Assembly: GCF_002607735.1 (NCBI RefSeq)
Contig: NZ_NBVR01000034.1
Location: 6,328 to 46,327 of the forward strand
DNA: 40,000 bases
Direction of reading: 5' to 3'
DNA from: Proteus alimentorum
GTDB lineage: Bacteria; Pseudomonadota; Gammaproteobacteria; Enterobacterales; Enterobacteriaceae
The notes below the pieces were generated by a model. It saw only the letters and a list, made by a program, of their open reading frames with translations. It was not told the origin of the DNA and searched no databases. Position numbers and translations under genes: made by a program. Numbering within the stretch: the stretch's first letter is position 1; each line of letters begins with the position of its first letter. Shown piece by piece: positions 1 through 16,445 of the stretch.

Positions 1-1
1 A

Positions 2-877: not shown

Positions 878-912
878 AATATAGAAAGGTATCTTTTGTG
901 TCAGTGTACGAA

Positions 913-2055
913 TTAACGTAACAGAGACAGAACAGTTTGTGGTACTTGGTTTGCTTGAGCAAGTACTGAAGTACCCGCTTGTTGCAGAATTTGACCACGG
1001 CTCATGTTAGAAACTTCTGTTGCATAGTCAGCATCTAGGATACGGCTACGTGCAGCAGATAAGTTGTTAACAGTGTTGTTCAGGTTGTTGATAGTAGATT
1101 CAAAACGGTTTTGAATCGCACCTAAAGAAGAACGCATACTATCAACGGAGTTAATTGCTTCGTCTAAAGTTTTCAATTGAGCTTCAGCCTTTTTAGTCTT
1201 TTCCTCCTCAACCTTAACTTCTTCAGGTGTATAAACTTTAACCTCTTTACCAACTTTATATTCTAAGGTTTTTGCTTGAAGTGGGTCAGCTGGGTTTTTA
1301 ACTGATACTTCAGCTTCATAAGTTTTACCGCCAACAGTGATATAATTCTTGCCATTTACTTCAGCAACATCATCTACTGTAGCAGCAGGTGCTCCATCAA
1401 TTGATGCTTTACCTAAGTCAGCAGCAACAATACCTTCACCAACTTTAGCTGGAGCCAACTGTGCAGCTGTTTTTTTACCAGCGGTCATTTCAGCTTTAGT
1501 TACACCACTAAATTTAGTTTCAGCACCAACTTCTAATTCGTCGATTTTCAACGTCTTGCTATCAACTTTTATCAATTCAAATTCAATTTTTTCTTTGTCG
1601 TTAGTACCAACGTGAACAGTCATAGTTGACTTTTCGCCACTCAGCACTTTAACGCCGTTGAATTGAGTTTGCTCAGAAATACGGTCAATTTCACTAAGAC
1701 GTTCTTTAACTTCTTCTTGGATTGATTTGATATCTGATTCTGAGTTAGAACCGTTTTTCGCTTGAACTGTTAACTCACGGATACGTTGTAAGTTGTTGTT
1801 GATTTCGTTCAGTGCACCTTCAGTAGTTTGAGCGATAGAGATACCATCGTTCGCATTACGTGCTGCTTGAGTTAAACCATTTACGTTAGAAGTGAAACGG
1901 TTAGCAATCGCTTGACCCGCTGCATCGTCTTTAGCGCTGTTGATACGCAGACCAGAAGACAGACGCTCGATTGCACTTCCTAAAGCTCCCTGAGATTTGT
2001 TCAGGTTGTTTTGAGTTACCAGAGATAGATAGTTGGTATTAATGACTTGTGCCAT
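913..2055 (-). CDS. fliC: Flagellin
   Basis: 380 aa. Conserved N-terminus MAQVINTNYLSLVTQNNLNKSQ...LSSGLRINSAKDDAAGQAIANRF and C-terminus ...SNMSRGQILQQAGTSVLAQANQVPQTVLSLLR, with a variable middle. A sigma28 promoter lies upstream. Confidence 0.97.
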   Translation of the reverse strand: MAQVINTNYLSLVTQNNLNKSQGALGSAIERLSSGLRINSAKDDAAGQAIANRFTSNVNGLTQAARNANDGISIAQTTEGALNEINNNLQRIRELTVQAKNGSNSESDIKSIQEEVKERLSEIDRISEQTQFNGVKVLSGEKSTMTVHVGTNDKEKIEFELIKVDSKTLKIDELEVGAETKFSGVTKAEMTAGKKTAAQLAPAKVGEGIVAADLGKASIDGAPAATVDDVAEVNGKNYITVGGKTYEAEVSVKNPADPLQAKTLEYKVGKEVKVYTPEEVKVEEEKTKKAEAQLKTLDEAINSVDSMRSSLGAIQNRFESTINNLNNTVNNLSAARSRILDADYATEVSNMSRGQILQQAGTSVLAQANQVPQTVLSLLR

Positions 2056-2133
2056 AGCTAGATTCCTTTAAAATCAAGTCGATAAAATAAAAGTTTGCCT
2101 ATTCATTTACGGTGTCAATCACCGGCAACAAGT

Positions 2134-2160
2134 TTATCGGCACCCCACATACAACCTTTA
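2134..2160 (-). promoter_or_regulatory. sigma28 (FliA) class 3 promoter of fliC
   Basis: The minus strand reads TAAAGGTT-N11-GCCGATAA (plus strand TTATCGGC 2134-2141, TTTA 2157-2160). Consensus is TAAAGTTT-N11-GCCGATAA. It ends 78 nt upstream of the fliC ATG. Confidence 0.8.
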
Positions 2161-2372
2161 ACTTTTCCGACAAATATTTCTGTGTTTTTTTATAGAATTA
2201 ATATCAACCCAATGATAAATAAAGAAATTAATTTATTATTTTTTTATTCATTTTTTATCAGTTTTTATCTCAAGCCATTTTTCAGTTATCTAAATTCGAC
2301 TTTGGTCATCAATAGCAATAAAAGGCTTCTATATGGCAGCCTGTTTACGTCATCAAAAATGCCAAATAGACG

Positions 2373-2399
2373 TAAACTTTTCGCCGATTCTACCGATAA
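2373..2399 (+). promoter_or_regulatory. sigma28 (FliA) class 3 promoter of fliDST
   Basis: TAAACTTT-N11-ACCGATAA, 7/8 matches in each element, ending 43 nt upstream of the fliD ATG. Confidence 0.7.
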
Positions 2400-2442
2400 C
2401 GGTTTTTGAGGATTATTTTACGAACACAGAAAGGAGACCGGT

Positions 2443-3873
2443 ATGGCTGGTATTGCTTCACTAGGCGTGGGCTCAGGGATGCCTCTTAGCCAAACATTGG
2501 CACAATTAGAGGCGGCGGAAAATAAACGCCTTGAACCCCTAGATAAACAGATGAAAAGCTACGAGGCGAAAATTACCGCTTACGGTAAGATCCGTAGCCA
2601 ACTTGATAAATTACAGAAAGCATCAGAAGAGTTAAAAAAATTCGATAAAATTGTTGCCACCAAAGTGGATGATGAGTTTGATGCCTTTAAAGTGACTACT
2701 GACGGTAAAGCTAGCGTAGGTAACTATACCGTTTCAGTAAAAACACTTGCTCATGCACAAACATTAAAATCAATTCCAGTTAATAACGTTAAAAATCAGA
2801 TTGGGGAAACGTTAGGTGCAGGTAAAACACGCACATTAGTGATAACCCAACCCGGTGAGAAAGAACCTTTACGCATTGAGCTAACAGATGAACAAACTTC
2901 AATGATTGAATTGCGTGATGCAATCAATAAAAAAGAAGGTAATGTTTCTGCCTCAATCGTTAAAGCTGAAGATGGCGTTAACCATTTGATCTTAACCTCT
3001 CGTAAAGAAGGGACAGATTCAATGATGACCATCAAAGTTGAAGGTGATAACGAACTGAATAAGTTTTTATCTAATTCACCCGATGCTGATAGCGCTCCAC
3101 ATAAATCAGGTATGAAACAAATCGTTGCCGCAAAAAATGCAGAATTAACGATTAATGGTATTGAAATTGAACGCCAGACCAATGAGATTAAAGATGCCCC
3201 AGAAGGGATCATTTTAAATCTTAAAAAAACGACTAACAGTAATAAAGAGAATATTGATAAGCCTGAAATTATTAATGTCGCTCGTGATATTGAGCCAATG
3301 AAAAAGGCCATTAAAGCCTGGACAGATGCTTATAACGAGTTAAACAGTACCTATAAATCTCTGACTAAATATACACAAGTAGAAAAAGGCGAAGCGGCAT
3401 CAAAAGATAATGGTGTATTACTGGGTGATACCACCAGCCGTATGATTATGTCAGAACTAAAAAGCTTTGTAACAAGTTCACAAAGCACCTCTGATTTAGA
3501 TACCCTTAATAAAATGGGAATTAAATTTAAGGTTGATGGCTCTTTAGATATTGATAGCAAAAAACTGGATGAAGCGTTAAAAGAAAAACCCGCTAACGTG
3601 AAAGAGTTTTTTATGGGTGATGGTAAAGAAACAGGCTTTGGTACCCAAACCTATAATTACCTAAAGAAAACTCTGCAATCTAATGATGGTACTTTAGATG
3701 TTGCCACTGATGGCGTAAAAAAACGTAAGAAAACATTAGATAGTCAAATTAAAAACACGGAACGCAATATTGCAGCCACGATGGAACGTTATAAAAACCA
3801 GTTCCAACAGTTAGATAAAATGGTGAACTCCATGACTAACTCGAGTGCCTCAATCGGCCGTCTATTAATGTAA
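2443..3873 (+). CDS. fliD: Flagellar filament cap protein
   Basis: 476 aa. RBS AAAGGAG. N-terminus [28 protein letters not shown] and C-terminus [28 protein letters not shown] are typical of FliD. Its position next to fliC/fliS agrees. Confidence 0.95.
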
Positions 3874-3892
3874 TTTTTAAAAGTAGGATAAT

Positions 3893-4291
3893 ATGTATCA
3901 ACAATCAGCCAGTAAAATGTATGCTCAAATCGACGTTGAAAGCGAGATTTTAAATGCCACGCCTTACCAGCTGATCCAGATCCTATTTAATGGGGCGCTT
4001 AGCGCCCTTCGCCGTGCATTAATATTAATGGAACAAGGAAATATCGCCGGTAAAGGCGAAAATATTTCTAAAGCCATTAATATTATTGGTAACGGATTAA
4101 AACAAGGGCTGGATAAAGAAAAAGGCGGCGAGCTTGCAGAGAATCTGGAGCTCCTTTATGACTATATGGTTAATCAGCTACTCGATGCTAACTTAAAAAA
4201 TAATCCAGAAAAAATTCATGAAGTCATCAAGCTCTTAACTGAAATTTCTGATGCTTGGCAACAAATCGGCACACAGATTAATTCTTATTAA
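3893..4291 (+). CDS. fliS: Flagellin-specific export chaperone
   Basis: 132 aa, collinear with E. coli FliS (YAQIDVES...KGENISKAINIIGNGL...DAWQQ). Confidence 0.95.
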   Translation: MYQQSASKMYAQIDVESEILNATPYQLIQILFNGALSALRRALILMEQGNIAGKGENISKAINIIGNGLKQGLDKEKGGELAENLELLYDYMVNQLLDANLKNNPEKIHEVIKLLTEISDAWQQIGTQINSY

Positions 4292-4297
4292 ATTAGA

Positions 4298-4663
4298 GTG
4301 GACAACAATATGGATATTATGGCGGCTTACGAGCATGTTTTAAAATCAAGTGAGCAAATGTTAACGCTTGCCAAAGATCAGCAATGGGACAAGCTGATAG
4401 AAATGGAAATGGATTATTTAAAAAGCGTAGAAAGTATCACTAAAATGATAAAACCTGCTGACGGTGAGCTGAGACTACAACAACGCCTCACGGATATGCT
4501 AAAGAAAATCTTAGAAAACGAAAATGAGACGCGAAATTTATTACGAGCTCGTCTAGATGAGCTTGGCATATTAATAAGACAGACTGAACAAGAGCAGAGG
4601 GTACAAAATAGCTATGGTCAGTTTACAGAACATAGTTATTATCCTGATCTCAATCTTAAATAA
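4298..4663 (+). CDS. fliT: FliD chaperone / FlhDC anti-activator
   Basis: About 120 aa, helical. The block SSEQMLTLAKDQQWDKLIEMEMDYL parallels E. coli FliT. Synteny after fliS agrees. The start could be GTG 4298 or ATG 4310. Confidence 0.85.
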   Translation: MDNNMDIMAAYEHVLKSSEQMLTLAKDQQWDKLIEMEMDYLKSVESITKMIKPADGELRLQQRLTDMLKKILENENETRNLLRARLDELGILIRQTEQEQRVQNSYGQFTEHSYYPDLNLK

Positions 4664-4791
4664 CTCTCCTCTGCGCCAAAAGCGGTTTTATTAGCTAATG
4701 GCGTCTTTACTTAGAAAAAGTGATTCTTATCATTCAGCTTAACTTGTTATCGGTAACGTAAAAATCTATGTTTACCATTTTGTTTTTTTGA

Positions 4792-5262
4792 TTACATAGA
4801 CATAGATTGTACAGATTGCACTAAAACCATATCAATATGTGGAATGTTATCTTCAAGATAAGTTTCTGAATCGATAACAAAACCATGTGATTGATAAAAT
4901 GAGACTAAATAAGCCTGCGCCATTATTTTTATTGTATGGGTATTAAATTGACGACACGTAGTGGCAATCGCCTCATTTATTAACTGATGGGCAATACCAC
5001 TTCCCCGCTGATTTTGAGCGACAATCACCCGCCCTATTGAGGCTTCTTTAAATGCGATACCTTGAGGCAACAGACGAGCATAAGCAATGATTTGCTGGCT
5101 ATCTTCCTCTTTAGCAAACAGGTGTAACGTATTTTGATCTACCCCATCCAGATCTTGATAAGCACATTGCTGTTCACAAATAAATACCTGATTTCTTAAA
5201 GCTAAAATAGCGTAAAGCTCATCTGTGGTGAGTTGTGAAAATGATTTTAAAATCCAATTCAT
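4792..5262 (-). CDS. elaA: GNAT family N-acetyltransferase, ElaA-like
   Basis: 156 aa. LTTDELYAILALRNQVFICEQQCAYQDLDG...GRVIVAQNQRGSGIAHQL...FYQSHGF...EDNIPHIDM is collinear with E. coli ElaA as recalled. Confidence 0.75.
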   Translation of the reverse strand: MNWILKSFSQLTTDELYAILALRNQVFICEQQCAYQDLDGVDQNTLHLFAKEEDSQQIIAYARLLPQGIAFKEASIGRVIVAQNQRGSGIAHQLINEAIATTCRQFNTHTIKIMAQAYLVSFYQSHGFVIDSETYLEDNIPHIDMVLVQSVQSMSM

Positions 5263-5342
5263 GTGCTTTTTCCCGTGATTGTTGTGTATTAATATAATTT
5301 CTATAATTTCTTATTATCTTTCTGCGAAAGCAAATAAAAGAA

Positions 5343-5368
5343 ATCGCCCACTTTCACTGTGGGCGATA
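5343..5368 (-). terminator. Intrinsic terminator after the DUF2235 gene
   Basis: Perfect 9-bp stem atcgcccac / gtgggcgat. On the minus strand TTCTTTTATTT follows it. Confidence 0.65.
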
Positions 5369-5400
5369 TATTAGCTCATAATAATCTGATAAATAATAAT

Positions 5401-6534
5401 TTATTTAATTACATCATAGAGTTGCTGATTAGATAAATAATCTGCGGTTAAACCTACTGATGGGTTATATTGTCCACCATGGATCTCAGAGAACGCTTTA
5501 CCCTCTTTACCCAATGAGACTTTTCGCTCATCTTTACCCGTACTTTCATAAATAGAATAGGTTTTACGACGCATTGCGATATATTTATCTGCATCATTAG
5601 CAATATCGGTGTGATAGCCCGTAATTTGTGTATCCGTTAAGGCTAATTTATTGGCTAAATCACAACCCCAACGAGTTAAACAGACTTCTGCAAAATGGCG
5701 AACCACAATACCCGGCGCATATAATGCATTTTCACCTTCACTACCATCAATAGATGCATTACCCACTAATGTGGCGTGGCGTCCTGAAATAGGGAAAATA
5801 TGCATTTTAGTGTCCGCAGCGACGGTTGGGATCACGCAAGTAAATCCTTTAGATCGCTCATCTCTTGCATAAAATCCGACATATTCTTTGACGTTTTTAC
5901 CCAGTGTTACTTTTTCATGTTGGAAATTCAGTGGACCGGGAACAGGGTCAATAGCAAAAATATTTACTGGAATATCTTTTAATTGAGGATCTGCCAACAT
6001 CGCATTCGCTAACATATGGCAAGTAATACCACCACGACTCCAACCCACTAAGTTAACTTGTGTTGGAATAATGCCATCTTTACGGAAGATACGAATAATT
6101 TGCTGTTGAAGTTGTTGCTGAGTGACTTGACGATCGCCATAGTCATATTTACGCCATAAAAAAGAGCCTGTTACTTTGACATCTTCAATAGGAATGCCCG
6201 CTTTTTTCAGTTGGTTATACTGCTCTTCTGTCAATTTTTCACGCTGCCAATCAAAGTTACCTTTCATTAAGCAAAGTGCATGATTAACATTTTCTTCCCA
6301 ACCACTACCAAATAACGAACCCTTAATATCAGAGTAATTAGGGCTTTCAACCCATAAATCATCTTCTTGCAGATTACCACTACCTGGGCCATCAACAATC
6401 AACCACTGTGCAAACTCTCTACCTTGATTGTTTTGCGCTAAAGTGGAAACTAATTCACCTTGCCAGAAGGTCGGATTATTATTATCAAATGAGTTAGACC
6501 CAGTACCACATAAATAAACGGTTAATACTGTCAT
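5401..6534 (-). CDS. DUF2235-type alpha/beta hydrolase (Tle1-like lipase fold)
   Basis: 377 aa. The N-terminal VYLCGTGSN block resembles the DGTxN start of DUF2235. A GWSRGG nucleophile-elbow motif (GxSxG) is present. No signal peptide is visible. Confidence 0.55.
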   Translation of the reverse strand: MTVLTVYLCGTGSNSFDNNNPTFWQGELVSTLAQNNQGREFAQWLIVDGPGSGNLQEDDLWVESPNYSDIKGSLFGSGWEENVNHALCLMKGNFDWQREKLTEEQYNQLKKAGIPIEDVKVTGSFLWRKYDYGDRQVTQQQLQQQIIRIFRKDGIIPTQVNLVGWSRGGITCHMLANAMLADPQLKDIPVNIFAIDPVPGPLNFQHEKVTLGKNVKEYVGFYARDERSKGFTCVIPTVAADTKMHIFPISGRHATLVGNASIDGSEGENALYAPGIVVRHFAEVCLTRWGCDLANKLALTDTQITGYHTDIANDADKYIAMRRKTYSIYESTGKDERKVSLGKEGKAFSEIHGGQYNPSVGLTADYLSNQQLYDVIK

Positions 6535-6888
6535 AATTAAATTTCCTTTTATTAATAACTAAAAAATCAAAATAATGATTTTTATTTCCTTGTATTGAGC
6601 TATTCCTTAGCCCACCAGCACATTAACCATAAGCCTTTTTTTATTCAATGAGTAAAAATGGATTAGTACAGTTGAGATCACATATCTTAATTTTACTTAC
6701 GTAAAAAAACGAGAAAATCATTGTCAGATCAAAGTAATTAAATTATATAAGTAAACACCTTATTTTTACTTATTTTCACCCGAAGATAAATAAACTGAAT
6801 AAAGCTTTTTAAAAGGCAATTCTTTAAATTTTGGATAAAAAAATCCCGCATTAAATAAAATGCAGGATTTTCTATTAGATAAAATATC

Positions 6889-7152
6889 TTATAAACGATT
6901 AAAAGCAACTACTCTCACCGCAGGAATATCAGCTTGTGCCCCTTCTGCAACTTCCTGACATGCTTTTTCTAACGCAATATGGGGTGTGATCCCACTTTCT
7001 GTTTCTACAATTTTATGTCCGGCGTAGGTATCACCATTTCTGGAACGCACTTTATACGCAATAAACCAATATTCCATATCATCACCGTTTACGTTATTAA
7101 TCATGTAATTACCATAGCCGTTTATGACTCGCTTTAATGTGATAATAATCAA
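6889..7152 (-). CDS. Small hypothetical protein (the true start is probably internal, ATG 7104 or 7077)
   Basis: Only ORF here. A hairpin at about 6843-6872 (atcccgcat...atgcaggat) lies downstream. No family recognised. Confidence 0.45.
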   Translation of the reverse strand: MIIITLKRVINGYGNYMINNVNGDDMEYWFIAYKVRSRNGDTYAGHKIVETESGITPHIALEKACQEVAEGAQADIPAVRVVAFNRL

Positions 7153-7208
7153 TAATTTTTAGTTTAATAAAATCGTTTTATAAAAAAATGAACTTTATCG
7201 TAGGAAAG

Positions 7209-7439
7209 TTAAGCGTGCTCTTTCATTTCTGATTGCACTAATTTTTTTATTTTTACTGCTTTTTCAAAGTGATCCAATTTATGTGTCATAATCCACCATG
7301 TTACAGCTTCCATTAGTAATTCAGGGTTGTTATTTTTATTTGCAAAAAAAGCATAAAAGGATACTCCCACCCCCTCTCCTTTGGCTAAAACCTTGTCATT
7401 ACATATTTGAATTATTTTTTGTTGTAGTGATTTTCTCAT
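7209..7439 (-). CDS. Small hypothetical protein
   Basis: 76-aa ORF co-oriented with its neighbours. No family recognised. Confidence 0.4.
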   Translation of the reverse strand: MRKSLQQKIIQICNDKVLAKGEGVGVSFYAFFANKNNNPELLMEAVTWWIMTHKLDHFEKAVKIKKLVQSEMKEHA

Positions 7440-7492
7440 ATTCTTTCTATCTGTATTTTTGGCATGGTAATAAATAGCTAAGCGTAAAGACT

Positions 7493-7831
7493 CTATCCAT
7501 GAAATTTATTCCACAGCAAAATAAGCAACCAAGCCGCGACAACCCAGCAGATAACCGCTGTAGCCAATGCTGTAAATAATTTTACATAGTTGATCATCAC
7601 ATAGAGTGAAATTAGATAAACCAGATAAGGAATAGTAGCCCATAGACTAAAAATAATTGTGGTTCGTAACGCTTCAATAGAGCGCTCAGCACCAACGATA
7701 TAATGTGCAATAAGCGCAAAAGTTGGAAATAACGGAACCAATCCCGCGATATAGTAATGACGAGATTTCGATAAAACAGCGATTAATACCACTAAAAACG
7801 CGCCTATCAGTGCTTTAATCAATAATCCCAT
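7493..7831 (-). CDS. ydgC: GlpM/YdgC family inner-membrane protein
   Basis: 112 aa, four hydrophobic helices. YYIAGLVPLFPTFALIAHYIVGAERSIEALRTTIIFSLW is nearly collinear with E. coli YdgC as recalled. Confidence 0.8.
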   Translation of the reverse strand: MGLLIKALIGAFLVVLIAVLSKSRHYYIAGLVPLFPTFALIAHYIVGAERSIEALRTTIIFSLWATIPYLVYLISLYVMINYVKLFTALATAVICWVVAAWLLILLWNKFHG

Positions 7832-8000
7832 GATTTTTTCATCAAGTTATAAAAATATTACTACTAGCATACCTATTCACATTTGTATGTGAGCTAATTT
7901 TATTTTTAGTTATTTAAAATGTTATTAAATATTTACTAGCAAAAAAAGCTCAATAACTTTATTGAGCTTTAAAGCTTATTAAATTTTATTTAAGCAAGCA

Positions 8001-8888
8001 TTAATCTTGTTGCCAAGAAATATCTTGTTCACCTTCTTGAGTTTTCAGCAGAACCAATTCACCTAACTCTGTTGTTTTATAGGTATTCAGTCTATAGTGC
8101 TTCGTTTTTTTCCCTGTTTGAGGATCTTTTGTTATCCAACTGATATTACCTTCAAAATCAGTTCCTTGATAATAAGTCGAAAAGCGTTTACGTTCACCAT
8201 CATACCAACCAACAACAATTACTGACTTAACACCCGCCATTAATTCTTCTAAAGGAAATTCTGACAGTAATACACTATTATTACCCACAGTTGCTACACA
8301 CGCTTTTCCACCCACAAAAGCACTGCAATTAGCATCAAAACCAAAAACTGATGAATTATTACCAAAAATAGCCGCTGTTTTAAAATTTCCTTCAGAGCCG
8401 ACCTTAGCGTTATTTCCAGTTGCTATGCCAATACTTCCTTCAGTAAGATCTTGGATCCATATATCATTACCTGTTGATATTGCTGTTGAATTAGAGGCAT
8501 AGCAATAGATAATCGCTTCGTCACCGGTCGTAATAGCCACTGAATCTTTCACAAGATTGACTTCTGCTGCTTCAATACTCTCATCTAGTTCAAAAGAATA
8601 TGAGATCTCAGCTTTTTTACCTGATGCAAAAGAGATTGATTGGCTAGATGCTTCAATAAAACTTTCTGCACCTGTTGTAATAAAAAGAGAATTTTTACCA
8701 TGCTTAATATTGCTTCCATTCTCACTAAACTCTACGCCTTCATTATCATAGATTTTAGCTTTATTACCAGTATGAATAATCTGAGCATCTTCACCTATAC
8801 AATTAACGATTTGCTCATTTAAAGTTAAAATGGCATTTTTATTTTCTCCGCTTAAAACAAGCGCATTATTTGTTGTTACGTTTGACAT
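8001..8888 (-). CDS. Beta-solenoid-like repeat protein of unknown function
   Basis: Start taken at MSNVTTNN (ATG 8888, AGGA 8 nt upstream), because the longer ORF would overlap its own promoter and LexA box. About 10 degenerate repeats of the form S.A..TG..A.I, then a distinct roughly 80-aa C-terminal domain. Confidence 0.7.
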   Translation of the reverse strand: MSNVTTNNALVLSGENKNAILTLNEQIVNCIGEDAQIIHTGNKAKIYDNEGVEFSENGSNIKHGKNSLFITTGAESFIEASSQSISFASGKKAEISYSFELDESIEAAEVNLVKDSVAITTGDEAIIYCYASNSTAISTGNDIWIQDLTEGSIGIATGNNAKVGSEGNFKTAAIFGNNSSVFGFDANCSAFVGGKACVATVGNNSVLLSEFPLEELMAGVKSVIVVGWYDGERKRFSTYYQGTDFEGNISWITKDPQTGKKTKHYRLNTYKTTELGELVLLKTQEGEQDISWQQD

Positions 8889-8930
8889 AATAATATCCTT
8901 ATTTAGATTTCCATTATTTAACACAAAAAA

Positions 8931-8950
8931 CACTGTTTAAATATACAGTA
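8931..8950 (-). promoter_or_regulatory. LexA (SOS) box overlapping the promoter of the 8001..8888 gene
   Basis: CACTGTTTAAATATACAGTA matches the TACTG(TA)5CAGTA consensus at 17/20, with CTG-N10-CAG intact. On the minus strand it overlaps TTGTTA (8962-8967) -16 nt- TATATT (8940-8945). Confidence 0.65.
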
Positions 8951-9409
8951 TATTTACTAAATAACAATCTCTATATTAAATTTTAGAAAATAAAATAACG
9001 ATAATAAAATCAAATAAATAAAAGCAAGTAACACATAATATATCTATAATTAATCAAATAAAGAAAAAATAAAATAGAAAAACTTAAGAAGAAAGATGAT
9101 GACCGAGCTTTATATAAAACTAATCCAACATAGGTTAAGTAACTTATTTAACAATTACTTTTGATCTTTTTAAAATATAAGAAGAGATAAAAAAGCGAGT
9201 TGCTTTGATATGGATGTGCAAAATCGCACATCAATAAAATGATGTGTCTATCTCATCCGCAAAAATCGGGGCGCTCATTATCATAAATAATAAACAATAG
9301 TATAAATATTCGAAGGTTTAATCACATTCGAAAGCTTATATCATCTATTCAATGACCTTGAGCAAATTGCCCCATTCTGTTTTGATTAGGCGCTTCTCTA
9401 TAGCTATAT

Positions 9410-9442
9410 AAAAGAAAAGCCACCTTTATCAAATGATAAGGT
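9410..9442 (-). terminator. Intrinsic terminator, probably the original fliE terminator displaced by the prophage
   Basis: The minus strand reads ACCTTATCA-TTT-GATAAAGGT followed by GGCTTTTCTTTT. It begins 3 nt after the TAG that follows the attL copy of the fliE 3' end. Confidence 0.45.
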
Positions 9443-9445
9443 ACT

Positions 9446-9464
9446 ACACTTGCATGCTCATAAT
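9446..9464. repeat. attL core (19-bp direct repeat ACACTTGCATGCTCATAAT)
   Basis: Identical to 22843..22861. The flanks diverge on both sides. The repeat is the reverse complement of the last fliE codons (I M S M Q V). Confidence 0.8.
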
Positions 9465-9523
9465 ATGGGAGTACAGATATCGAAAATATGAAAAGTTCGA
9501 GTTAGTTCAAGATTAGCAGATGA

Positions 9524-9582
9524 TTACCGCAAATTATTTTCTCAAGCGTTAGTGAGTTCGAGAAAGTTTGCGGTAATTTTTT
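9524..9582 (+). terminator. Long hairpin plus T-run (terminator-like) in the attL-proximal arm; function unassigned
   Basis: Perfect 11-bp arms ATTACCGCAAA (9524-9534) / TTTGCGGTAAT (9567-9577) with an inner TTCTC/GAGAA pairing. The final stem T (9577) begins a six-T run, 9577-9582. Confidence 0.35.
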
Positions 9583-9646
9583 GCCCCCTATACGTCCCCA
9601 CCTACTACCTTCCTGCTATACTCTCCAAAAACTAACCAGATCCGTT

Positions 9647-9877
9647 ATGAACCTCGCAAACCTAACTCAAGAAGAAAAAGACAAGATTAATGTCGATTTA
9701 GCTGCTTCAGGTATCGCATATAAAGAACGCCTCAATATGCCAGTTGTCGCGTCCGAAGTTGAACGACAACAACCAGCACATTTGAGAGCGTACTTTAATG
9801 AACGATTGGCGTTTTATCGTGAGAAAAGTAAGAGTTTGCCGGACGGGAATTCGGTGCAGTATTTGAAAACAGAGTGA
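9647..9877 (+). CDS. Hypothetical prophage-end protein (moron-like)
   Basis: 76 aa from ATG 9647 ([13 protein letters not shown]...). The upstream part of the ORF has only a TTG start. No clear SD. The stop abuts the convergent tfa stop. Confidence 0.4.
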
Positions 9878-10294
9878 TTACTCTGGTTTTTGTGGCCATT
9901 CAATATCTGGCGCTAACGATGTATCCACATTTGTTAATGCATATCGATAACGTTGCCACAAATCCAATCGTTTAATATCCCTTTTTTCAATGTACCCGCC
10001 ATTTTGGGCATCAGACATCGGATCGATAACGCTAGTCGCCTCACTAATTAACGATGCCTTTTTTCTCTCTTCCACCATAACCATTTCATCTTTTGTTAGT
10101 TGTGGCTTATCTCCCCATGCTGGAAGACCGTCTATTGCAATTCTAATTTTATTATCCGGGGGATTTTTAGAGAACTCCTCATAAATACTATCATCAACTA
10201 ATATCGCATCTTCCGGAAATGTTCCTGCTGAAATGTAGTCGGACTTCATGTCTTCAGGATAAAACGAGTTTGTCTTTTCACTAAAAAAATACAT
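9878..10294 (-). CDS. tfa: Tail fibre assembly protein (Tfa chaperone)
   Basis: 138 aa directly after the tail-fibre gene. N-terminus MYFFSEKTNSFYP and C-terminus LWQRYRYALTNVD...IEWPQKPE are typical of the caudoviral Tfa family. Confidence 0.85.
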   Translation of the reverse strand: MYFFSEKTNSFYPEDMKSDYISAGTFPEDAILVDDSIYEEFSKNPPDNKIRIAIDGLPAWGDKPQLTKDEMVMVEERKKASLISEATSVIDPMSDAQNGGYIEKRDIKRLDLWQRYRYALTNVDTSLAPDIEWPQKPE

Positions 10295-10295
10295 A

Positions 10296-11735
10296 TTAAT
10301 ACCCCACCGCTAGCCACATTATACGAATATTTGGCGCCGTCATTTCTGTCGCTATCTTTGATAATGTTGATTTTGATAAATTGATACCGATGTTTTTAGC
10401 TCCGTCATAATCAATTATGGATACCGATGCTATTGATGAAGGGAATGCTATTGGTAGGTCAATAAAGAAATCATCATATGATATATCTTTTCTTCCCCAC
10501 TGATAAATAATCCCTGTATCACCACATTTCCACCACCCATTTTGAGATTTTAATGATGTGTTTTTGAGCCCGTAATTTCCTTTCGGTTGGTAATTTTTCA
10601 CAGCCTCACTTCTTGGTAAAAAAACATCCAACTCATCTTTAGTTACTGCTACCCCCTTTTTTTTCGGTAATGTAATTGCAGTATGATAATCAGATGTGTC
10701 ATTTGCTTCTTCTCGTGAATATACTGTAACTGATCCGTCAGATTCACGATAAAGACGAACTGAACCATTCGCGCAGTTAACAGATCCCCGCCCAGCAGAG
10801 TCCACTCCCCCTGTTATTGTGTGATTGCCATAATTTATTTTCTTATCTAACTCTTTCGTGAAATCACTGGTTGTTACATAACTTCCTGCTGGCTGATAGT
10901 TACCCGCTGGTTGTTTCTTTCCTAATTCCCTCGCTAATAAATCAAGACTGGGAACTTTGTTAACATCATTGCCCAACTGCTGAGAGATGCTGGCTTTATC
11001 AATCTTCTTATTAAGCGCCACATTCATCGCTGATGTAGTGACAAAATTAACTAAATCACTAATTAGCGCTGCGATACCTTTCTTCTTTGGAAGTTCAAAT
11101 GATGTAACATAATTTGATTCATTATCAGGAAGCTCCCTACTGAATATGGTGACCACTCCTGCGCTGTTTCTGTAAAACCTCAAAGAGCCATCTGCAGCAT
11201 TCACAGAACCATTACCTGCCGAGTCAACACCTCCTGTTATTGCGTGATTACTGAATGTTATTTTCTTATCCAACTCGCTTTTAAAGTCATTTTTATTAAC
11301 AAAGGTATCAGTAGACGCTTTCTGACTCATTACGCTTGTTGTTGACGTGCCTGTGGATTGGACTACTGCGGTTTTGTCGAGTTTGTTATTTACACCTAAA
11401 AAATCAGCTAGCGGCTTCCAAGCATTTTGCGAAGTATTCGGCTGTTCTCCCTTTGTTACTTTTAATGCAACATAAAAAACAGATGATTGCTGTACCAATG
11501 CATCTTTCGGATAATCAACTGCGTCATCCCACTCAGCTAAACCACGCTGTGTTAAATACATTAACCATTCATCGACACGTTTACCGATAGCGTTGAACCA
11601 TTCTAATGGGGGTTTTCCTGCTGTTCTTTCCAGTGTGACGCCCCATCCGCGAAGTACATCTGGAAATGTTTCTATCTCACCTGTTTTTGCATCTTGTGCA
11701 AATATTTTTAGGTCTGGCTTTTTAATTACTGACAT
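10296..11735 (-). CDS. Tail fibre protein
   Basis: 479 aa. Conserved fibre N-terminus (DLKIFAQDAKTGE...GWG...YLTQRGLAEWD). Two internal 73-aa repeats. C-terminal NGWWKCGDTGIIYQWG block typical of fibre tip domains. Confidence 0.85.
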   Translation of the reverse strand: MSVIKKPDLKIFAQDAKTGEIETFPDVLRGWGVTLERTAGKPPLEWFNAIGKRVDEWLMYLTQRGLAEWDDAVDYPKDALVQQSSVFYVALKVTKGEQPNTSQNAWKPLADFLGVNNKLDKTAVVQSTGTSTTSVMSQKASTDTFVNKNDFKSELDKKITFSNHAITGGVDSAGNGSVNAADGSLRFYRNSAGVVTIFSRELPDNESNYVTSFELPKKKGIAALISDLVNFVTTSAMNVALNKKIDKASISQQLGNDVNKVPSLDLLARELGKKQPAGNYQPAGSYVTTSDFTKELDKKINYGNHTITGGVDSAGRGSVNCANGSVRLYRESDGSVTVYSREEANDTSDYHTAITLPKKKGVAVTKDELDVFLPRSEAVKNYQPKGNYGLKNTSLKSQNGWWKCGDTGIIYQWGRKDISYDDFFIDLPIAFPSSIASVSIIDYDGAKNIGINLSKSTLSKIATEMTAPNIRIMWLAVGY

Positions 11736-12378
11736 TCATTAACCTCGTAAATTTTCCATCATTGAATCCGAGTGAGTACGGATCATTAGCCCACCCAAAC
11801 GGGTGAGAGTCAGTGATAACTAAATATTTATAATTGACACCTATTGGCCTAACTAAGATGTCCAAGTTTTTTATGGCGTAAAGCCTGAAAGGAGTTAAAT
11901 AATCAGCTGGAACTACAATATTCATTGTCATATCGTAGTTATCTATAACAAATGTTTGCTCGCCTAATAGGTTTCTTATGGAATATGTAATTCCCTCAAT
12001 ATCAGGTGATTGGTAATTTTTTGTGATCTTCGCTTCAATAAAAAAACGATAATCTTCATCATCCAGTTTTGATGATTCTTTCAATGAATCACCGTAGCGA
12101 TAAAAAACACCTGCATTAAAACCAAGAGCACCATCAATACCTAAGAACCCAAAATAATCCTTTGGGATAAATGACTTCATTATTCGATTAATACCAACAT
12201 GCTTGCCGATTAAGTCAAGCCCATATCCTGATGATTGTTTTACATTTAAGATTGTTGATAGTCGTATAACTGATTCAAATGACCTCTTTGTTTCAGATAG
12301 CAAAAGCCCGGCTGTTTGTCGGGCCTTGGGTTTTCCTCTGTATTGCCAAATTAGAAAATCTTCTCTTTGTTTACTCAA
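11722..12378 (-). CDS. Baseplate/tail-fibre connector protein (DUF2612-like)
   Basis: 218 aa. The N-terminus FLIWQYRGKPKARQ resembles DUF2612. It sits between the baseplate J gene and the fibre gene, with overlapping stop/start codons. Confidence 0.6.
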   Translation of the reverse strand: MSKQREDFLIWQYRGKPKARQTAGLLLSETKRSFESVIRLSTILNVKQSSGYGLDLIGKHVGINRIMKSFIPKDYFGFLGIDGALGFNAGVFYRYGDSLKESSKLDDEDYRFFIEAKITKNYQSPDIEGITYSIRNLLGEQTFVIDNYDMTMNIVVPADYLTPFRLYAIKNLDILVRPIGVNYKYLVITDSHPFGWANDPYSLGFNDGKFTRLMNVSN

Positions 12379-13495
12379 TTAGCACCTCCACATCTTCCGG
12401 CCTAATTTGAGCGCACTGTCTAACTCCAACTTTCACCGAATCTGAACCATTAACGGTAATGGATTTGATATAGAAACCTTGTACTGAGTTAACCTGACAA
12501 GTTAAGCGCATAGCATAGACTGATTCGCCTATTTCAAATGATGTGTCCGATAATGCTGATTTTATGCTTTCTGTGTCAATATCATGAAACCCACCTACCC
12601 TTTCCAATAAGAGCTTAACTTTAATATTGACGTTAGATGCTCTATCAAATTTAACTGTCCTTTGTGCTCCTGCATATTCTTGAGTATTGCTGATGCTCCC
12701 AAACACACCGCAACCACCTATTTTCTTTTTAAGAATAGTCAGACCTATATCATCATCACTGCCACCAATCACAACCGCATTTAGTGAATGAGCAGGTACA
12801 CCTTTATCATCTGTTTGGTTCGTGAAGTTTTCGTATACTCTAGCTTGTTTTACGTCAGGCAAATCAAGTAAAGCACCCTCAAGCCCTTGCCTGTCATCAT
12901 GATTATTAATTGAGTGCGAACGCATGAACCGGGTTAATAAACTACCGTCCATCTCTTCGAACACACCTTCTTTAGCTATTTTTGTTGTCGTTATTTTTTC
13001 AACACCAACAATCACTGTGTCCATCGACAACTCTTTCCCAGCTTGAATTGAGAAAGCGCCTAATTCATGACTTCTCATATTCACCCTTGCCGATCCATTA
13101 ATATCTAAAACAATATCAGCAAGTGTCACCCACTTTGATAAATTTCCATCTGAGAAAATAGAGCCTTTTGGTACCTTTACGCCTTGCTTTCCTGTTACGA
13201 TCACGTCATCTAAGTAACTATAATCTGCACCTCGACGAACAATGCCGGCATACATTGCTCGTTGTTCTAACCATGCGCCAGTTGCTTTGTAGGGATCTAA
13301 CATCTGAGCAATCATTGATAATGCCTGATTGATGCTGTCTATTTCTTGAGAGAATAAACCTATCATCTGCCCGTCAGGGCTATCTGCATCAATACTAATA
13401 TCATCGCCGTAAATCCGTTTAAAACCGTCAGTGAGGCGTTTATGCACATCTGACAGACTATCAATAACTATCCCTGTTTCAGTTATTTGGAGCAT
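12371..13495 (-). CDS. Baseplate J-like wedge protein
   Basis: 374 aa. The N-terminal region (DADSPDGQMIGLFSQEI...ATGAWLEQRAMYAGIVRRGA) is characteristic of the Baseplate_J family. Coupled to its neighbours. Confidence 0.75.
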   Translation of the reverse strand: MLQITETGIVIDSLSDVHKRLTDGFKRIYGDDISIDADSPDGQMIGLFSQEIDSINQALSMIAQMLDPYKATGAWLEQRAMYAGIVRRGADYSYLDDVIVTGKQGVKVPKGSIFSDGNLSKWVTLADIVLDINGSARVNMRSHELGAFSIQAGKELSMDTVIVGVEKITTTKIAKEGVFEEMDGSLLTRFMRSHSINNHDDRQGLEGALLDLPDVKQARVYENFTNQTDDKGVPAHSLNAVVIGGSDDDIGLTILKKKIGGCGVFGSISNTQEYAGAQRTVKFDRASNVNIKVKLLLERVGGFHDIDTESIKSALSDTSFEIGESVYAMRLTCQVNSVQGFYIKSITVNGSDSVKVGVRQCAQIRPEDVEVLIE

Positions 13496-13841
13496 CTGTG
13501 TTTACCTCATTTTCTTTTCCGTAAATATCAATATACGTGACAGATATTGTGAATCGTCGCGTGTCGGGATTAAGCTGGATATCAAAATCAGTGATCTGCT
13601 CTACGCCATCTGTATTTAAAACAGTGCCTTTTATCTCTGTTTCCATTGCGATGAGATTTGGATTTTTTCGCAAGTAATCAAACCAGCGAACACCATGCTC
13701 TGTGTTGAGAAACCAGTCATTACGCAGAGATAGAAGTCGCGTTAAAACAGATTGGCTAATCGCCTCAGATTTTGTTGCGTAGTCAGCTCGCCCGCTTCCG
13801 AAAGTCCAATCATGATTATTATCAAGTCGTCTTACTTTCAT
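13479..13841 (-). CDS. Small baseplate wedge protein (GpW/gp25-position)
   Basis: 120 aa. Its position immediately upstream of baseplate J and the overlapping coupling are the only evidence. Sequence family not firmly recognised. Confidence 0.5.
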   Translation of the reverse strand: MKVRRLDNNHDWTFGSGRADYATKSEAISQSVLTRLLSLRNDWFLNTEHGVRWFDYLRKNPNLIAMETEIKGTVLNTDGVEQITDFDIQLNPDTRRFTISVTYIDIYGKENEVNTDAPNN

Positions 13842-14494
13842 TAATTGGGCGCTCCTGTATTTCCATGACCGGTTTCAACACCACTATGAGTATGCGTATC
13901 ACCAATATTTTTGCCGTTGTGTTTAATGGAGCCACCTGATGATTCGCTATTGCCTTTCACTGAGTGATTACCATTTATAAGCGTATTACCTTCTTGCGTA
14001 TTATTTCCTGTGTGTTCGATATCGCCTTGAATAAGGATCTTCCCTTTTTTCATTCGAATAAATGTTGAACCATCATCGGTCTGCATTGATAGTGAATCAC
14101 TGGAGTAATCAGGTATCTTATTTGGCTGACTACTTCCCATCGGTAGGAAGAAAGCATCAGATAAATCATGAAATCGTGTATCTAATGGCACGGATTGTTT
14201 GCCTGAAGCATACCAGCCATCAATGCAACGCTCGGAAAATATAGCCAGCCCCTCATCACCCTCTTTCAATGGAACAGTAACACAAAAGCCACCTCCACGA
14301 TAAAATCCAACTGGCACATCGACTAGAGGAGGCAAGGCAATCGAACCACCATCTTTCATTAAGTGGGTTATCATTAATTCAACTGTTGCGCTATGTCCGT
14401 CACATGAAATAAGACGGGCGGGTAATGCTGTATGTATGTCTTGCCGTTGGTTTTCTGATTGTCTCGATAAAACATCCAGTAGAGATGGTTCCAT
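13841..14494 (-). CDS. Baseplate central spike protein (Gp138 N-terminal-domain-like)
   Basis: 217 aa. N-terminus DIHTALPARLISCDG...VELMI...LPPLVDVPV. Gly/His-rich C-terminus (GDTHTHSGVETGHGNTGAPN) typical of spike tips. Confidence 0.6.
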   Translation of the reverse strand: MEPSLLDVLSRQSENQRQDIHTALPARLISCDGHSATVELMITHLMKDGGSIALPPLVDVPVGFYRGGGFCVTVPLKEGDEGLAIFSERCIDGWYASGKQSVPLDTRFHDLSDAFFLPMGSSQPNKIPDYSSDSLSMQTDDGSTFIRMKKGKILIQGDIEHTGNNTQEGNTLINGNHSVKGNSESSGGSIKHNGKNIGDTHTHSGVETGHGNTGAPN

Positions 14495-15318
14495 TATTTT
14501 TCCACCTTTTTAAACCTGCCGCCTATGCAGGTAATTTGTGAATACCAATCATCACCAAGAAAATCACCCTCATGGCTCAATTCAGTAATTTTATAATCAC
14601 CGTTATATTCAGACATGATTGACTGAACTCTAACTAAGCCACCAATGCGCAATGATGGATTACACAAACACGTTAAACTAAGACCATCATCCGTTTTCTC
14701 AGGTGAGCCAACCATTCCGGTTTCTTGTGAAAGCACAAAACCCTCGTTATCAGCAAGCACCTTATCTTTGGGTAATACAGTCATTTGACCATCTTGAATA
14801 GACCATTGAACATCGTTATTCTTGGCTATCTTGTGAAGTAACTCACGAGGATCGCCGAACATCACTTTACCTCGAGGAAGTTGCCTATCTTTTGGTAAAT
14901 CAACAACACCAGTCTCTATCCCCATCGACTGAGTATTTTCTTTCAGAATTTCAGCGTCACTCTTACCAGCTGACAGTGTTTTATTTACCACTGATGATGT
15001 GTAGGCTTTAAAACCATCACCACATATCAACTCACTAATAAAATCCTCACCATCTCTCAGCGTGTTGGCTTCAACAATATCGCCTGCGTAAATTTGACGT
15101 AGTTCTTCATAGCCCACTGACAGTGAGGCCCTATTGAATTCGTTGCTTGTTAGTAAGTTACGATGAGAAGCGTTGAGGTTATAAATTCTGATAACTGCGG
15201 GATTTGGTTCTGGTGTTAATGTTTTTTTTACTTCGAAAGTTACTCTAAGGTTTGTTATTTCTAATGATTCTTTATCGCTGCCAATAACTAATTTAAGTTG
15301 TCGTCCGAATTGCCTCAC
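14494..15318 (-). CDS. Baseplate hub-like protein
   Basis: Start reassigned to GTG 15318, which has AAGGAGG 6 nt upstream. The longer ORF overlaps the preceding gene by 50 nt. 274 aa, in the baseplate operon. Confidence 0.55.
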   Translation of the reverse strand: MRQFGRQLKLVIGSDKESLEITNLRVTFEVKKTLTPEPNPAVIRIYNLNASHRNLLTSNEFNRASLSVGYEELRQIYAGDIVEANTLRDGEDFISELICGDGFKAYTSSVVNKTLSAGKSDAEILKENTQSMGIETGVVDLPKDRQLPRGKVMFGDPRELLHKIAKNNDVQWSIQDGQMTVLPKDKVLADNEGFVLSQETGMVGSPEKTDDGLSLTCLCNPSLRIGGLVRVQSIMSEYNGDYKITELSHEGDFLGDDWYSQITCIGGRFKKVEK

Positions 15319-15631
15319 GCCAAACCTCCTTATCAACAACATATAACCTAAGTCGATTACCTAGCTCATTTTGAGAGACCGAGTTAATACCGAACTGTGA
15401 CTTATCAGATAGCATTAGAATAAAAGGTAAGTTCTTTTCTAACAGCGAAGGCGCATTAACAGCTAACCCCTGACGTTGAGTGATCACTCTATTTTTATCC
15501 GCATCGAATAGGTCAAACTGCCAGCCTTTTGATACAGAATTAAAATAAAGTGTTAAGCGAATATTCATATCGAACAATATAAATATCTGCTCCTGACTGG
15601 GTTTGCTTGATACTGGTATTTCATAAATCAT
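15293..15631 (-). CDS. Hypothetical baseplate-module protein
   Basis: 112-aa ORF translationally coupled on both sides within the structural operon. Confidence 0.5.
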   Translation of the reverse strand: MIYEIPVSSKPSQEQIFILFDMNIRLTLYFNSVSKGWQFDLFDADKNRVITQRQGLAVNAPSLLEKNLPFILMLSDKSQFGINSVSQNELGNRLRLYVVDKEVWREAIRTTT

Positions 15632-16392
15632 GGCTTAATCCCCATCATATCTTTTAGCGCGCCTGCACCGTCTTTTATGAGAGATGAATTACCACCTTTA
15701 ACCTTATCAGTAGGTTGTGTGCGCCCCATATTCTGTTTTTGAGGCTGACCTTTTAAATCAGGATGAAGCCCTTTTGCGGTCTGATTCTCAACAATAAATA
15801 TCTCCTCAAGGGTTAAAGTAACCTCAGCAGAACCCGGTTTATCTTGAATCGTACCGATATTCGTTATCATCATGTTTTTGTATAACTTAATACCCGTTTG
15901 CACATCTATCGTTTCACCGCGTTTTTGCAGTGATAACAAACTATCGTAAGCTCGACCAACTCTATCTAGTGTTTGAGATGTATCAGCGCTACCTATGCCA
16001 GAATCGGGATACCACGGTGCTAATACTTTTCCTACGGCATCAAGACCAGCATTAGCAATGCCAATATATTGCTCAATCATTGCTTCTGCTTGTTTTGTAT
16101 TCGCTGATATTTCTAATGGCAATGGGTAATCATCAAGCACGGAAGTATCGAACCCCGTCAGGTTCTTAAAGTTTTTAGGTGGCTCATAACCAACAACAAC
16201 GCCTGTTACAGTTAATGTTTTAGGTTCTAGAATCGCGTGATCTGCAATGTCAGCACCAGACTCAACAGGGTTCTTTGTTAGTCGTAACGATGAGGCGTGC
16301 TCTTCTCTTACTGTGCAATCGAGAATGAAGTCACCAATAGAGCGTGTAATCACCGACGCTCTACCTGTAAATAAACCACTTGTTAAGTCCAT
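15628..16392 (-). CDS. Tail/baseplate structural protein (first surviving gene of the structural operon)
   Basis: 254 aa, GGAG RBS 6 nt upstream of ATG 16392, coupled to the downstream genes. Family not firmly recognised. Confidence 0.5.
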   Translation of the reverse strand: MDLTSGLFTGRASVITRSIGDFILDCTVREEHASSLRLTKNPVESGADIADHAILEPKTLTVTGVVVGYEPPKNFKNLTGFDTSVLDDYPLPLEISANTKQAEAMIEQYIGIANAGLDAVGKVLAPWYPDSGIGSADTSQTLDRVGRAYDSLLSLQKRGETIDVQTGIKLYKNMMITNIGTIQDKPGSAEVTLTLEEIFIVENQTAKGLHPDLKGQPQKQNMGRTQPTDKVKGGNSSLIKDGAGALKDMMGIKP

Positions 16393-16404
16393 ATTGGCTC
16401 CAAT

Positions 16405-16430: not shown

Positions 16431-16445
16431 GAGAAATTTTAATAT

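Follow-up and report, generated by a model that had tools for sequence, protein, structure and literature searches.

A putative LexA-controlled β-solenoid protein of Proteus alimentorum from a small, phage-associated family

The gene and its locus

A stretch of 40,000 nucleotides (nt) from Proteus alimentorum (NCBI RefSeq assembly GCF_002607735.1, contig NZ_NBVR01000034.1, positions 6,328 to 46,327 of the forward strand; here, the window, with positions counted from its first letter) carries on its minus strand a gene for an uncharacterized protein. This protein consists of a predicted β-solenoid and a small C-terminal β domain, and its gene is preceded by a strong candidate LexA operator. A first-pass annotation, made from the letters of the window alone, had described the product as an apparently SOS-controlled repeat protein of about 295 amino acids (aa), and the open reading frame (ORF) indeed encodes 295. 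The gene and the elements around it are as follows.

8001..8888, minus strand: coding sequence (CDS) of the family gene, from the ORF and its translation; 295 aa, stop codon within the coordinates.
8896..8900, minus strand: Shine-Dalgarno sequence AAGGA, 7 nt 5' of the ATG at 8888; invariant in 7 Proteus loci.
8931..8950, no strand assigned: LexA operator (SOS box), TACTGTATATTTAAACAGTG on the strand of the gene (8950..8931).
8940..8967, minus strand: sigma-70 promoter-like site with a -35 element TTGTTA (8967-8962), a 16-nt spacer, and a -10 element TATATT (8945-8940); 9/12 match.
8951..9130, no strand assigned: AT-rich upstream noncoding region, conserved above the CDS among Proteus species.
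7945..7970, minus strand: intrinsic-terminator-like hairpin with an 11-bp (base pair) stem, a 4-nt loop, and a T-run, 31 nt past the stop codon.

The protein has a calculated mass of 31.8 kDa, a pI of 4.63, and a net charge of -16. Its start is placed at ATG 8888, the codon to which distant homologs align. An alternative start at GTG 8933, which some database annotations use to give 307-aa forms, was rejected, as this codon falls within the LexA box, lacks a Shine-Dalgarno sequence, and does not fit the distant homologs as ATG 8888 does. The hairpin at 7970-7945 on the minus strand, an element absent from the first-pass annotation, follows the stop codon together with its T-run, and the gene is therefore likely to be monocistronic. 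The predicted gene unit comprises an operator with its promoter, a single ORF, and a terminator.

The genes at the locus are arranged in the order fliD-fliS-fliT, an acetyltransferase gene, a gene for a 377-aa protein of unknown function, an 87-aa ORF, a DUF6500 gene, glpM, the family gene, DUF4440/DUF2933, and fliE-fliF. The family gene, adjoined by glpM, is found within the variable segment that separates the two flagellar gene blocks. Its close homologs all come from Proteus (Proteus sp. ZN5, Proteus sp. GOKU, P. cibi, and Logan assemblies) and form 11 clusters of Proteus-type homologs with 48 to 98% identity. At the flagellar locus of two P. mirabilis chromosomes, glpM, the family gene, and its upstream region are all absent; these chromosomes carry only a true ydhT, which ends a ydhYVWXUT-like operon.

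The LexA box and putative promoter of the window gene

The predicted operator at 8931-8950 deviates at 3 positions (17/20 match) from TACTGTATATATATACAGTA, the 20-bp gammaproteobacterial LexA consensus. It retains the CTGT-N8-ACAG core; the same score and an intact core, given as CTG-N10-CAG, had been noted in the first-pass annotation at the same coordinates. The match extends over all 20 positions of the consensus, beyond mere palindromy. Only two sites with 3 or fewer mismatches, at 8931 and 18580, are found in the 40-kb window, whereas shuffled sequences gave an expectation of 0.00. With a heterology index (HI) of 3.1, the box at 8931-8950 is better than about 25 of the 29 E. coli reference sites from which the matrix was built; apart from the two boxes just mentioned, the next-best HI in the window is 11.6. 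A gap of 42 nt separates the box from the ATG, and the -10 hexamer TATATT of the promoter-like site falls inside the box. The TTGTTA-16-TATATT arrangement is a plausible promoter and the only plausible candidate for the gene.

Operators of the same type, with a CTGT-N8-ACAG core and of high quality, are found in canonical SOS genes and in LexA-controlled genes of mobile elements, such as those of colicins, 186 tum, the Gifsy antirepressors, and qnrB. In canonical gammaproteobacterial SOS genes, for example, umuDC, recN, and sulA, the operator lies over the -10 element. The window gene would be similar to them in that its operator overlaps the predicted core promoter (the boxes of the family end 26 to 44 nt before the start where they are present), and it can be likened to the LexA-controlled accessory genes in being a single gene associated with mobile elements. 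Its product, however, is related neither to the canonical SOS proteins nor to the LexA-controlled products of mobile elements. Colicin operons include an immunity or lysis partner, whereas the window gene is a lone ORF with a terminator and glpM as its neighbor; no colicin-type combination of a toxin gene with immunity or lysis genes is present at the locus.

Conservation of the operator across the family

Boxes with HI values of 1.4 to 4.3, ending 26 to 44 nt before the ATG, precede family genes in 8 independent genomic contexts, including homologs with identity as low as 23%, and the upstream DNA around these boxes is otherwise unrelated between contexts. One of these contexts is that of the Proteus orthologs (the window and loci L001, L002, L003, L007, L009, and L015), in which the box core is invariant. 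Since the whole upstream region of about 240 nt is conserved in this genus, the conservation of the box within Proteus is uninformative by itself. The other contexts, with identities to the window protein, are listed below.

L008, genus not assigned: 48% identity, different locus; LexA box present.
L016/L017, Providencia sp.: 46% identity, in an int-xis remnant beside icd; LexA box present.
L018/L019, Providencia rustigianii: 32% identity, near flhDC; LexA box present.
L020/L021, Morganella morganii: 27% identity, beside a holE-like gene and umuDC; LexA box present.
L022 (protein P0017), prophage of Proteus genomosp. 4: 27% identity, directly after lysozyme/Rz; LexA box present.
L022 (protein P0019), prophage of Proteus genomosp. 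4: 23% identity, before the Q antiterminator gene; LexA box present.
L011/L012, IMG/VR prophage contigs: about 25% identity, after holin-endolysin-Rz; LexA box present.

Most family members have the hexamer TATATT within the box. Among 300,713 scanned positions of fetched DNA, only 27 sites had an HI of 6.5 or less, and most of these were the family boxes. The same scan found no LexA box at the true ydhT genes of either E. coli or P. mirabilis. That an operator of top quality has been retained eight times independently, at a fixed distance from the start, is very hard to account for unless LexA control is functional. LexA control of the family gene, which had been proposed in the first-pass annotation, is thus well supported in silico.

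The palindrome might still be something else, either a chance product of AT-rich DNA or the operator of another regulator, in which case the gene would not be damage inducible. The base composition of the region and the conservation of the entire 240-nt upstream segment in Proteus, which makes the box conservation within the genus uninformative, are compatible with this possibility. However, 7 further contexts with unrelated upstream sequences have the box at the same spacing from the ATG, zero sites are expected by chance, and the fit to the consensus covers all 20 positions, all of which make a non-LexA palindrome extremely unlikely.

The prophage L022 contains two divergent family copies (1208-2020 and 7001-7867), each with its own LexA box. 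Thus, a single element can host coexisting paralogs, P0019 located before Q and P0017 located after Rz.

Several other LexA boxes were seen in the same DNA. On the contig L008, which carries the P0011 homolog, two paralogous small ORFs rich in Cys and Pro (3081-3336 and 7843-8129) encode proteins of 67 aa (MTQVTKETCCENGQTVIKIVVNNCCKCGCKCEEPEKPEP...) and 77 aa, with LexA boxes of HI 2.8 and 2.0, respectively, about 30 to 35 nt upstream. Judging from these boxes, they apparently represent another SOS-controlled uncharacterized family. Strong LexA boxes are also found upstream of the phage Q antiterminator gene in M. morganii (L020/L021, 8243-8262) and upstream of rusA-ylcG-Q in Klebsiella oxytoca (L023, 3176-3195). 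In K. oxytoca, the family gene directly follows Q and itself lacks a box. The location of these boxes suggests that LexA might act directly on late-gene antitermination in the prophage remnants of M. morganii and K. oxytoca.

Predicted structure and conserved residues

An AlphaFold2 model of the window protein, built from a 12-sequence alignment, has a mean predicted local distance difference test (pLDDT) value of 86.8 and a predicted template-modeling score (pTM) of 0.83. It shows a β-solenoid followed by a separate C-terminal domain, in agreement with the degenerate β-helix-type repeats and the unrelated C-terminal domain of the first-pass annotation, which had also proposed a structure prediction.

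8259..8864, minus strand: β-solenoid region, residues 9-210; AlphaFold2 strands in an 18-residue register.
8022..8252, minus strand: C-terminal β domain, residues 213-289; six strands in the AlphaFold2 model.

The predicted solenoid winds through about 11 coils, in each of which 18 residues are divided between two 9-residue half-repeats of the pattern x-S-x-A-I-x-T-G-[DN]; disordered or variable insertions are found at residues 50-61 and 105-107. Having the 9-residue unit twice per coil, the modeled structure is a two-sheet β-roll or solenoid and not a pentapeptide or hexapeptide helix. The C-terminal domain is marked by the family signature G-W-[HY]-D-G-x-R-K-R...Y-Y-x-G; in the Proteus-type proteins, it contains an extra hairpin insert of about 20 residues that is absent from the shorter relatives.

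Neither a signal peptide nor a transmembrane segment was detected in the window protein (maximum Kyte-Doolittle hydropathy of any 19-mer, 1.13), and the first-pass annotation had likewise seen no signal peptide. The protein is thus predicted to be soluble and cytoplasmic. The net charge is between -14 and -26 in 19 of the 22 aligned family members, as compared to -4 in E. coli YdhT. Pairwise identity among the aligned members is mostly 17 to 30%, and the acidity is nonetheless kept. The positions that are invariant throughout the family are glycines and, in the C-terminal domain, W228, D230, G231, R235, Y240, and Y270; the family alignment contains no conserved constellation of catalytic-type residues.

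Sequence conservation within Proteus

In pairwise comparisons of the Proteus orthologs, the ratio of nonsynonymous to synonymous substitution rates (dN/dS) is 0.1 to 0.2 in the N-terminal 47 residues and the C-terminal domain and 0.16 to 0.45 in the middle part. By this measure, the family gene is a real gene under purifying selection. The middle part (aa 48-210) is the fastest evolving, with very high dS, and is too divergent between lineages to be aligned by blastn. Positive selection was rejected, as dN/dS is below 0.5 everywhere. With dS also very high in the middle part, mosaicism or recombination is a likelier cause of its divergence than diversifying selection.

The upstream region of about 240 nt (8889-9130) is 84 to 92% identical among Proteus species, as compared to 63 to 82% for the CDS and 47 to 68% for third codon positions. 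A divergently oriented DUF4440 gene has been lost here except for its first codons, which remain at 9096-9130. No Rfam family was found in the whole window, and no convincing small ORFs are present in the conserved upstream region. From the alignment, this conservation implies either that the leader or promoter DNA is strongly constrained outside the LexA box as well or that recombination breakpoints fall within the CDS.

Relatives and database matches

A hidden Markov model (HMM) search of 1.84 billion representative proteins returned 42 matches at an E value of 1e-3 or less, of which those with names are labeled "hypothetical protein" and come from Providencia, Morganella, Proteus, and Klebsiella. 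A second word-index protein search added only P0040, and scans of a genome-contig and a metagenome-contig collection added one Proteus locus each; two alignments, A3 and A4, proved too diverged for scanning by pattern. A tblastn search of 50,697 phage genomes (INPHARED) with three family members as queries gave no match. In a search of plasmids, tblastn matched only two entries, through their true YdhT; these, PLSDB NZ_OL790811.1 and NZ_OL790812.1 (4.08 and 4.09 Mb), are evidently complete P. mirabilis chromosomes filed as plasmids. A literature search found no publication that deals with the family or lists it in a LexA regulon of Proteus.

Profile searches of the window protein yielded only a subthreshold match to DUF1344 in Pfam, nothing below an E value of 0.015 in PHROGs (and nothing meaningful for 22 relatives), and 0 families at an E value of 1 or less in PADLOC-DB v2. 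Foldseek found no PDB match at an E value of 0.001 or less; the best ones are generic right-handed β-helices with template-modeling (TM) scores of 0.34 or lower. A match to LacA in a PDB sequence-profile search (E value, 2.8e-4) was rejected as a repeat artifact: with a wider family profile, its E value rises to 0.77, and chance matches to antibodies appear instead. Neither Pfam Hexapep nor any left-handed β-helix structure is among the Pfam and Foldseek matches, which places the protein outside the hexapeptide-repeat acyltransferases. Thus, no clear profile match to a characterized family, which the first-pass annotation had named as a finding that would tell against its reading, emerged from Pfam, PHROGs, PADLOC, or the PDB, and its statement that the protein resembles no known member of the SOS regulon holds for these searches.

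The weaker structural matches bear on the possibility that the protein is an SOS-induced inhibitor of cell division or the cell cycle, comparable to SulA, Kil, DicB, and SfiC, with the β-helix binding FtsZ or a Min protein in the manner of the C-terminal β-helix of MinC. Prophage-borne division inhibitors are common, LexA control is supported in silico, and Foldseek ranks 7, 8, and 20 are CAP-type right-handed β-helices with the fold of the MinC C-terminal domain. One relative, moreover, is found in an int-xis remnant by icd, the position of e14 with sfiC in E. coli. However, these Foldseek matches are not significant (E value, 0.24 or worse; TM score, 0.12 to 0.27), Pfam shows neither a MinC nor a bactofilin match, and the sequence gives no pointer to FtsZ, so that this role appears very unlikely.

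The relationship that could be detected is to YdhT (NCBIfam PRK09946), the last gene product of the FNR-regulated ydhYVWXUT operon in E. coli. The window protein matches the YdhT model with an E value of 5.8e-10 and 39.2 bits, and its relatives reach up to 65 bits; the score of the window protein is far short of the equivalog cutoff of 300 bits. An hhalign comparison with E. coli YdhT gives a probability of 88% and covers the last solenoid coils and the C-terminal domain. Both proteins contain 9-residue x-S-x-I-x-x-G-x-x solenoid repeats and a C-terminal [WY]-H-D-G-x-R-x-R motif (AYHDGERVRF in E. coli), and this superfamily-level signature, the nonapeptide solenoid with a [WY]HDGxRxR domain, is present in the window protein. 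In contrast to the window protein, YdhT has a helical N-terminal region of about 100 aa, is encoded in the ydh operon and not by a monocistronic gene between glpM and a phage island, is near neutral (net charge of -4, as opposed to -16), and has no LexA box. The true YdhT ortholog of P. mirabilis is found at another locus and shows 26.5% identity. By these sequence comparisons, the window protein is a distant paralog of the uncharacterized YdhT, with homology at the superfamily level and not orthology.

In BFVD, which was covered by the Foldseek search that the first-pass annotation had recommended, the matches are to uncharacterized phage proteins, with E values from 1.7e-5 to 1.5e-3, probabilities up to 1.0, and TM scores up to 0.51 to 0.64. 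They include A0A6J5M0X7, A0A0U2C121 of Paracoccus phage Shpa, Q2Z0Y1 of Pseudomonas phage EL, and one "DUF7666 domain-containing" protein. These proteins share the overall predicted architecture with the window protein, yet only 13 to 18% of their residues are identical to it, and the window protein has no Pfam DUF7666 match.

The pentapeptide-repeat DNA mimics Qnr, MfpA, and AlbG are likewise acidic solenoid rods without enzymatic motifs and are linked to SOS; qnrB itself is LexA regulated. The similarity is one of functional analogy only: the repeat period is 5/20 in Qnr and MfpA but 9/18 in the window protein, which has no pentapeptide match in Pfam at an E value of 1 or less and no Foldseek match to the Qnr or MfpA structures.

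Within prophages, family members are found after holin-endolysin-Rz, before Q, and after Q. Judging from these locations and from the database matches, the family is small, phage associated, and mainly found in Morganellaceae, and the chromosomal copy of Proteus is most readily understood as a "moron" cassette that has been domesticated or orphaned.

The neighboring phage-derived island and the second LexA box

A perfect 19-bp direct repeat, ACACTTGCATGCTCATAAT, at 9446-9464 and 22843-22861 bounds the following elements.

9465-22842: phage-derived island of 13.4 kb, inserted 558 nt upstream of the ATG of the family gene, just upstream of fliE.
18580-18599: second LexA box, TACTGCATATATATACAGTA, with 1 mismatch and an HI of 3.6, inside a 34-bp near-perfect palindrome.

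The island encodes a holE-like theta subunit (9644-9877), tail-fiber and baseplate proteins, RexA/RexB-like proteins, an Ant-type antirepressor (KilA-N/ANT), a methyltransferase, a DUF1233 excisionase, and a truncated 186-aa integrase. The first-pass annotation had placed the family gene as the last chromosomal gene before the attL of a prophage. The gene is indeed the last one of the backbone before the repeat-bounded island, and a phage element is inserted there; this element, however, is not a complete prophage but a 13.4-kb remnant. In P. cibi (L007), the site is empty, and in the strain represented by L006, it is occupied by a different prophage (with tail spike, acyltransferase, and holE-like genes).

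The second LexA box ends 10 nt upstream of the ATG of the RexA-like gene (17653-18570, minus strand), which is followed by the RexB-like gene (17204-17641, minus strand); both score above the Pfam gathering thresholds. Thus, the box that the first-pass annotation reported at 18580 is present, but it precedes this RexA/RexB-like pair and not an uncharacterized function. In phage lambda, rexAB is expressed with cI, and it would therefore be unusual for a prophage remnant to have an abortive-infection pair of the RexAB type under the control of LexA.

This pair can be set beside the family gene in an account whereby the family protein serves in phage exclusion or defense, inside the cell against superinfecting phage, or is a cargo that lysis releases to act outside (bacteriocin- or Stx-like), and is made when damage signals the imminent release of phage. 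This account is in line with the moron or defense-hotspot sites that family members occupy in prophages (behind Rz, near Q, or at the ends of the element), with the LexA box that likewise precedes the exclusion pair in the window, with the narrow taxonomic range and patchy paralogs of the family, and with the lack of the gene in two P. mirabilis chromosomes. However, the protein has no PADLOC match, no immunity or lysis partner gene, no signal peptide, and no recognizable sensor or effector domain, which makes a role of this kind very improbable.

Two further observations concern the genomic surroundings of the family. The 377-aa protein encoded at 5401-6534 (minus strand) contains no Pfam domain and is conserved at this site throughout the Proteus loci examined, those of P. 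mirabilis among them; its gene has a 69%-identical DNA match, annotated as hypothetical, on the Serratia marcescens plasmid AP028515.1. Flagellar genes are neighbors of family members in three contexts: Proteus (fliE/fliD; window positions 1-9464 and 22843-40000), the IMG/VR contig L011 (beside a flagellin gene; 6028-7188), and P. rustigianii (about 3.5 kb from flhDC-motA; L018, 9452-10930). This proximity may perhaps just reflect prophage integration hotspots by flagellar loci.

Proposed mechanism

Taken as a whole, the explanation that we consider probable is that of a stand-alone LexA-repressed cassette belonging to a phage-associated family; for its product, a nonenzymatic binding role is our best guess, at a rather low probability. 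In the undamaged cell, a LexA dimer would occupy the 20-bp operator at 8931-8950 and shut out RNA polymerase, as the operator contains the -10 hexamer. Upon DNA damage, activated RecA would trigger the self-cleavage of LexA, allowing the promoter to fire, and a monocistronic mRNA would end at the hairpin at 7970-7945. The product would be a soluble, strongly acidic 31.8-kDa rod, a solenoid of about 11 coils capped by a small β domain with a W-[HY]-D-G-x-R-K-R patch. During the SOS response, this acidic rod might serve as a decoy or a DNA-mimic-type inhibitor by binding and blocking a protein that is basic or binds DNA.

A nonenzymatic binder is tentatively proposed because the family has no conserved catalytic residues, keeps its negative charge at 23 to 30% identity, and has no partner gene; the moron positions in prophages are counted as further support for such a role. 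The more specific idea, that the bound partner is a basic or DNA-binding protein, is likewise tentative and draws on analogy with SbmC/GyrI, Qnr/MfpA, lambda Gam, and LexA-controlled antirepressors, none of which are homologs. In its broadest form, which we regard as unlikely, the idea would make the family a new class of SOS-induced polyanionic β-solenoid decoys, a nonpentapeptide counterpart of the Qnr/MfpA mimics that spreads among Morganellaceae prophages as a self-contained LexA operator/gene/terminator cassette and, upon DNA damage, neutralizes a DNA-binding target. Such a target would be, for example, a topoisomerase, a nucleoid protein, a repressor encoded by a phage, or a nuclease, be it RecBCD or a restriction enzyme.

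Several points weigh against this explanation. The HI matrix is derived from 29 E. coli LexA operators and not from Proteus sites, and absolute HI values are approximate. Promoter-like sites with 9/12 matches are at chance level in this AT-rich region (12 found versus 8.7 expected); accordingly, the promoter of the first-pass annotation is present, with its -10 element overlapped by the box, but as a site it occurs at chance frequency, and the transcription start, around 8933, is a predicted one. No box was found directly upstream of the genes of three more distant relatives (K. oxytoca L023, L024, and L014), which makes LexA control a feature of the Morganellaceae clade and not of the entire superfamily. 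Finally, the decoy idea draws on the charge, the missing catalytic residues, and analogy, and a charge of -16 to -25 is unusual but not extreme.

A subcase of the decoy model is that of a LexA-controlled trans-acting antirepressor, which would bind a noncleavable prophage repressor and thereby induce resident prophages, as do coliphage 186 Tum, N15 AntC, and the Salmonella Gifsy antirepressors. Such a function would suit an acidic protein whose gene, in prophages, stands alone and has a LexA operator to itself. Several divergent paralogs per genome or prophage are seen, as if they tracked immunity types, and the mosaic, fast-evolving middle region fits as well. However, the Proteus copy is under purifying selection at a fixed site without an adjacent prophage (L001, L002, L003, and the empty-site L007), where an orphan prophage inducer would burden the host, and the adjacent island of the window already has an antirepressor of the KilA-N/ANT type. 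Neither the window protein nor the 22 relatives match any PHROG antirepressor family, and at 295 aa, the protein is far above the size of Tum-type antirepressors. An antirepressor is thus quite unlikely.

Significance

Little of the SOS regulon has so far been mapped outside E. coli, and the accessory genes that prophages have under LexA control often matter; they include antirepressors, toxins, qnrB-type resistance genes, and division inhibitors. The regulatory logic described here is canonical; what is new is an uncharacterized protein family, with neither a Pfam model nor a solved structure, that is tied to LexA. The LexA operator persists despite divergence to 23% identity and moves with the gene between unrelated loci, which suggests that the function of the protein is required specifically when DNA is damaged. 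Proteus, Providencia, and Morganella, which cause urinary and nosocomial infections, are routinely exposed to SOS-inducing fluoroquinolones, so that drug tolerance, prophage induction, or resistance to phages could be affected by a new factor that is induced by damage. In addition, the relationship to YdhT provides a first handle on a long-uncharacterized E. coli protein.

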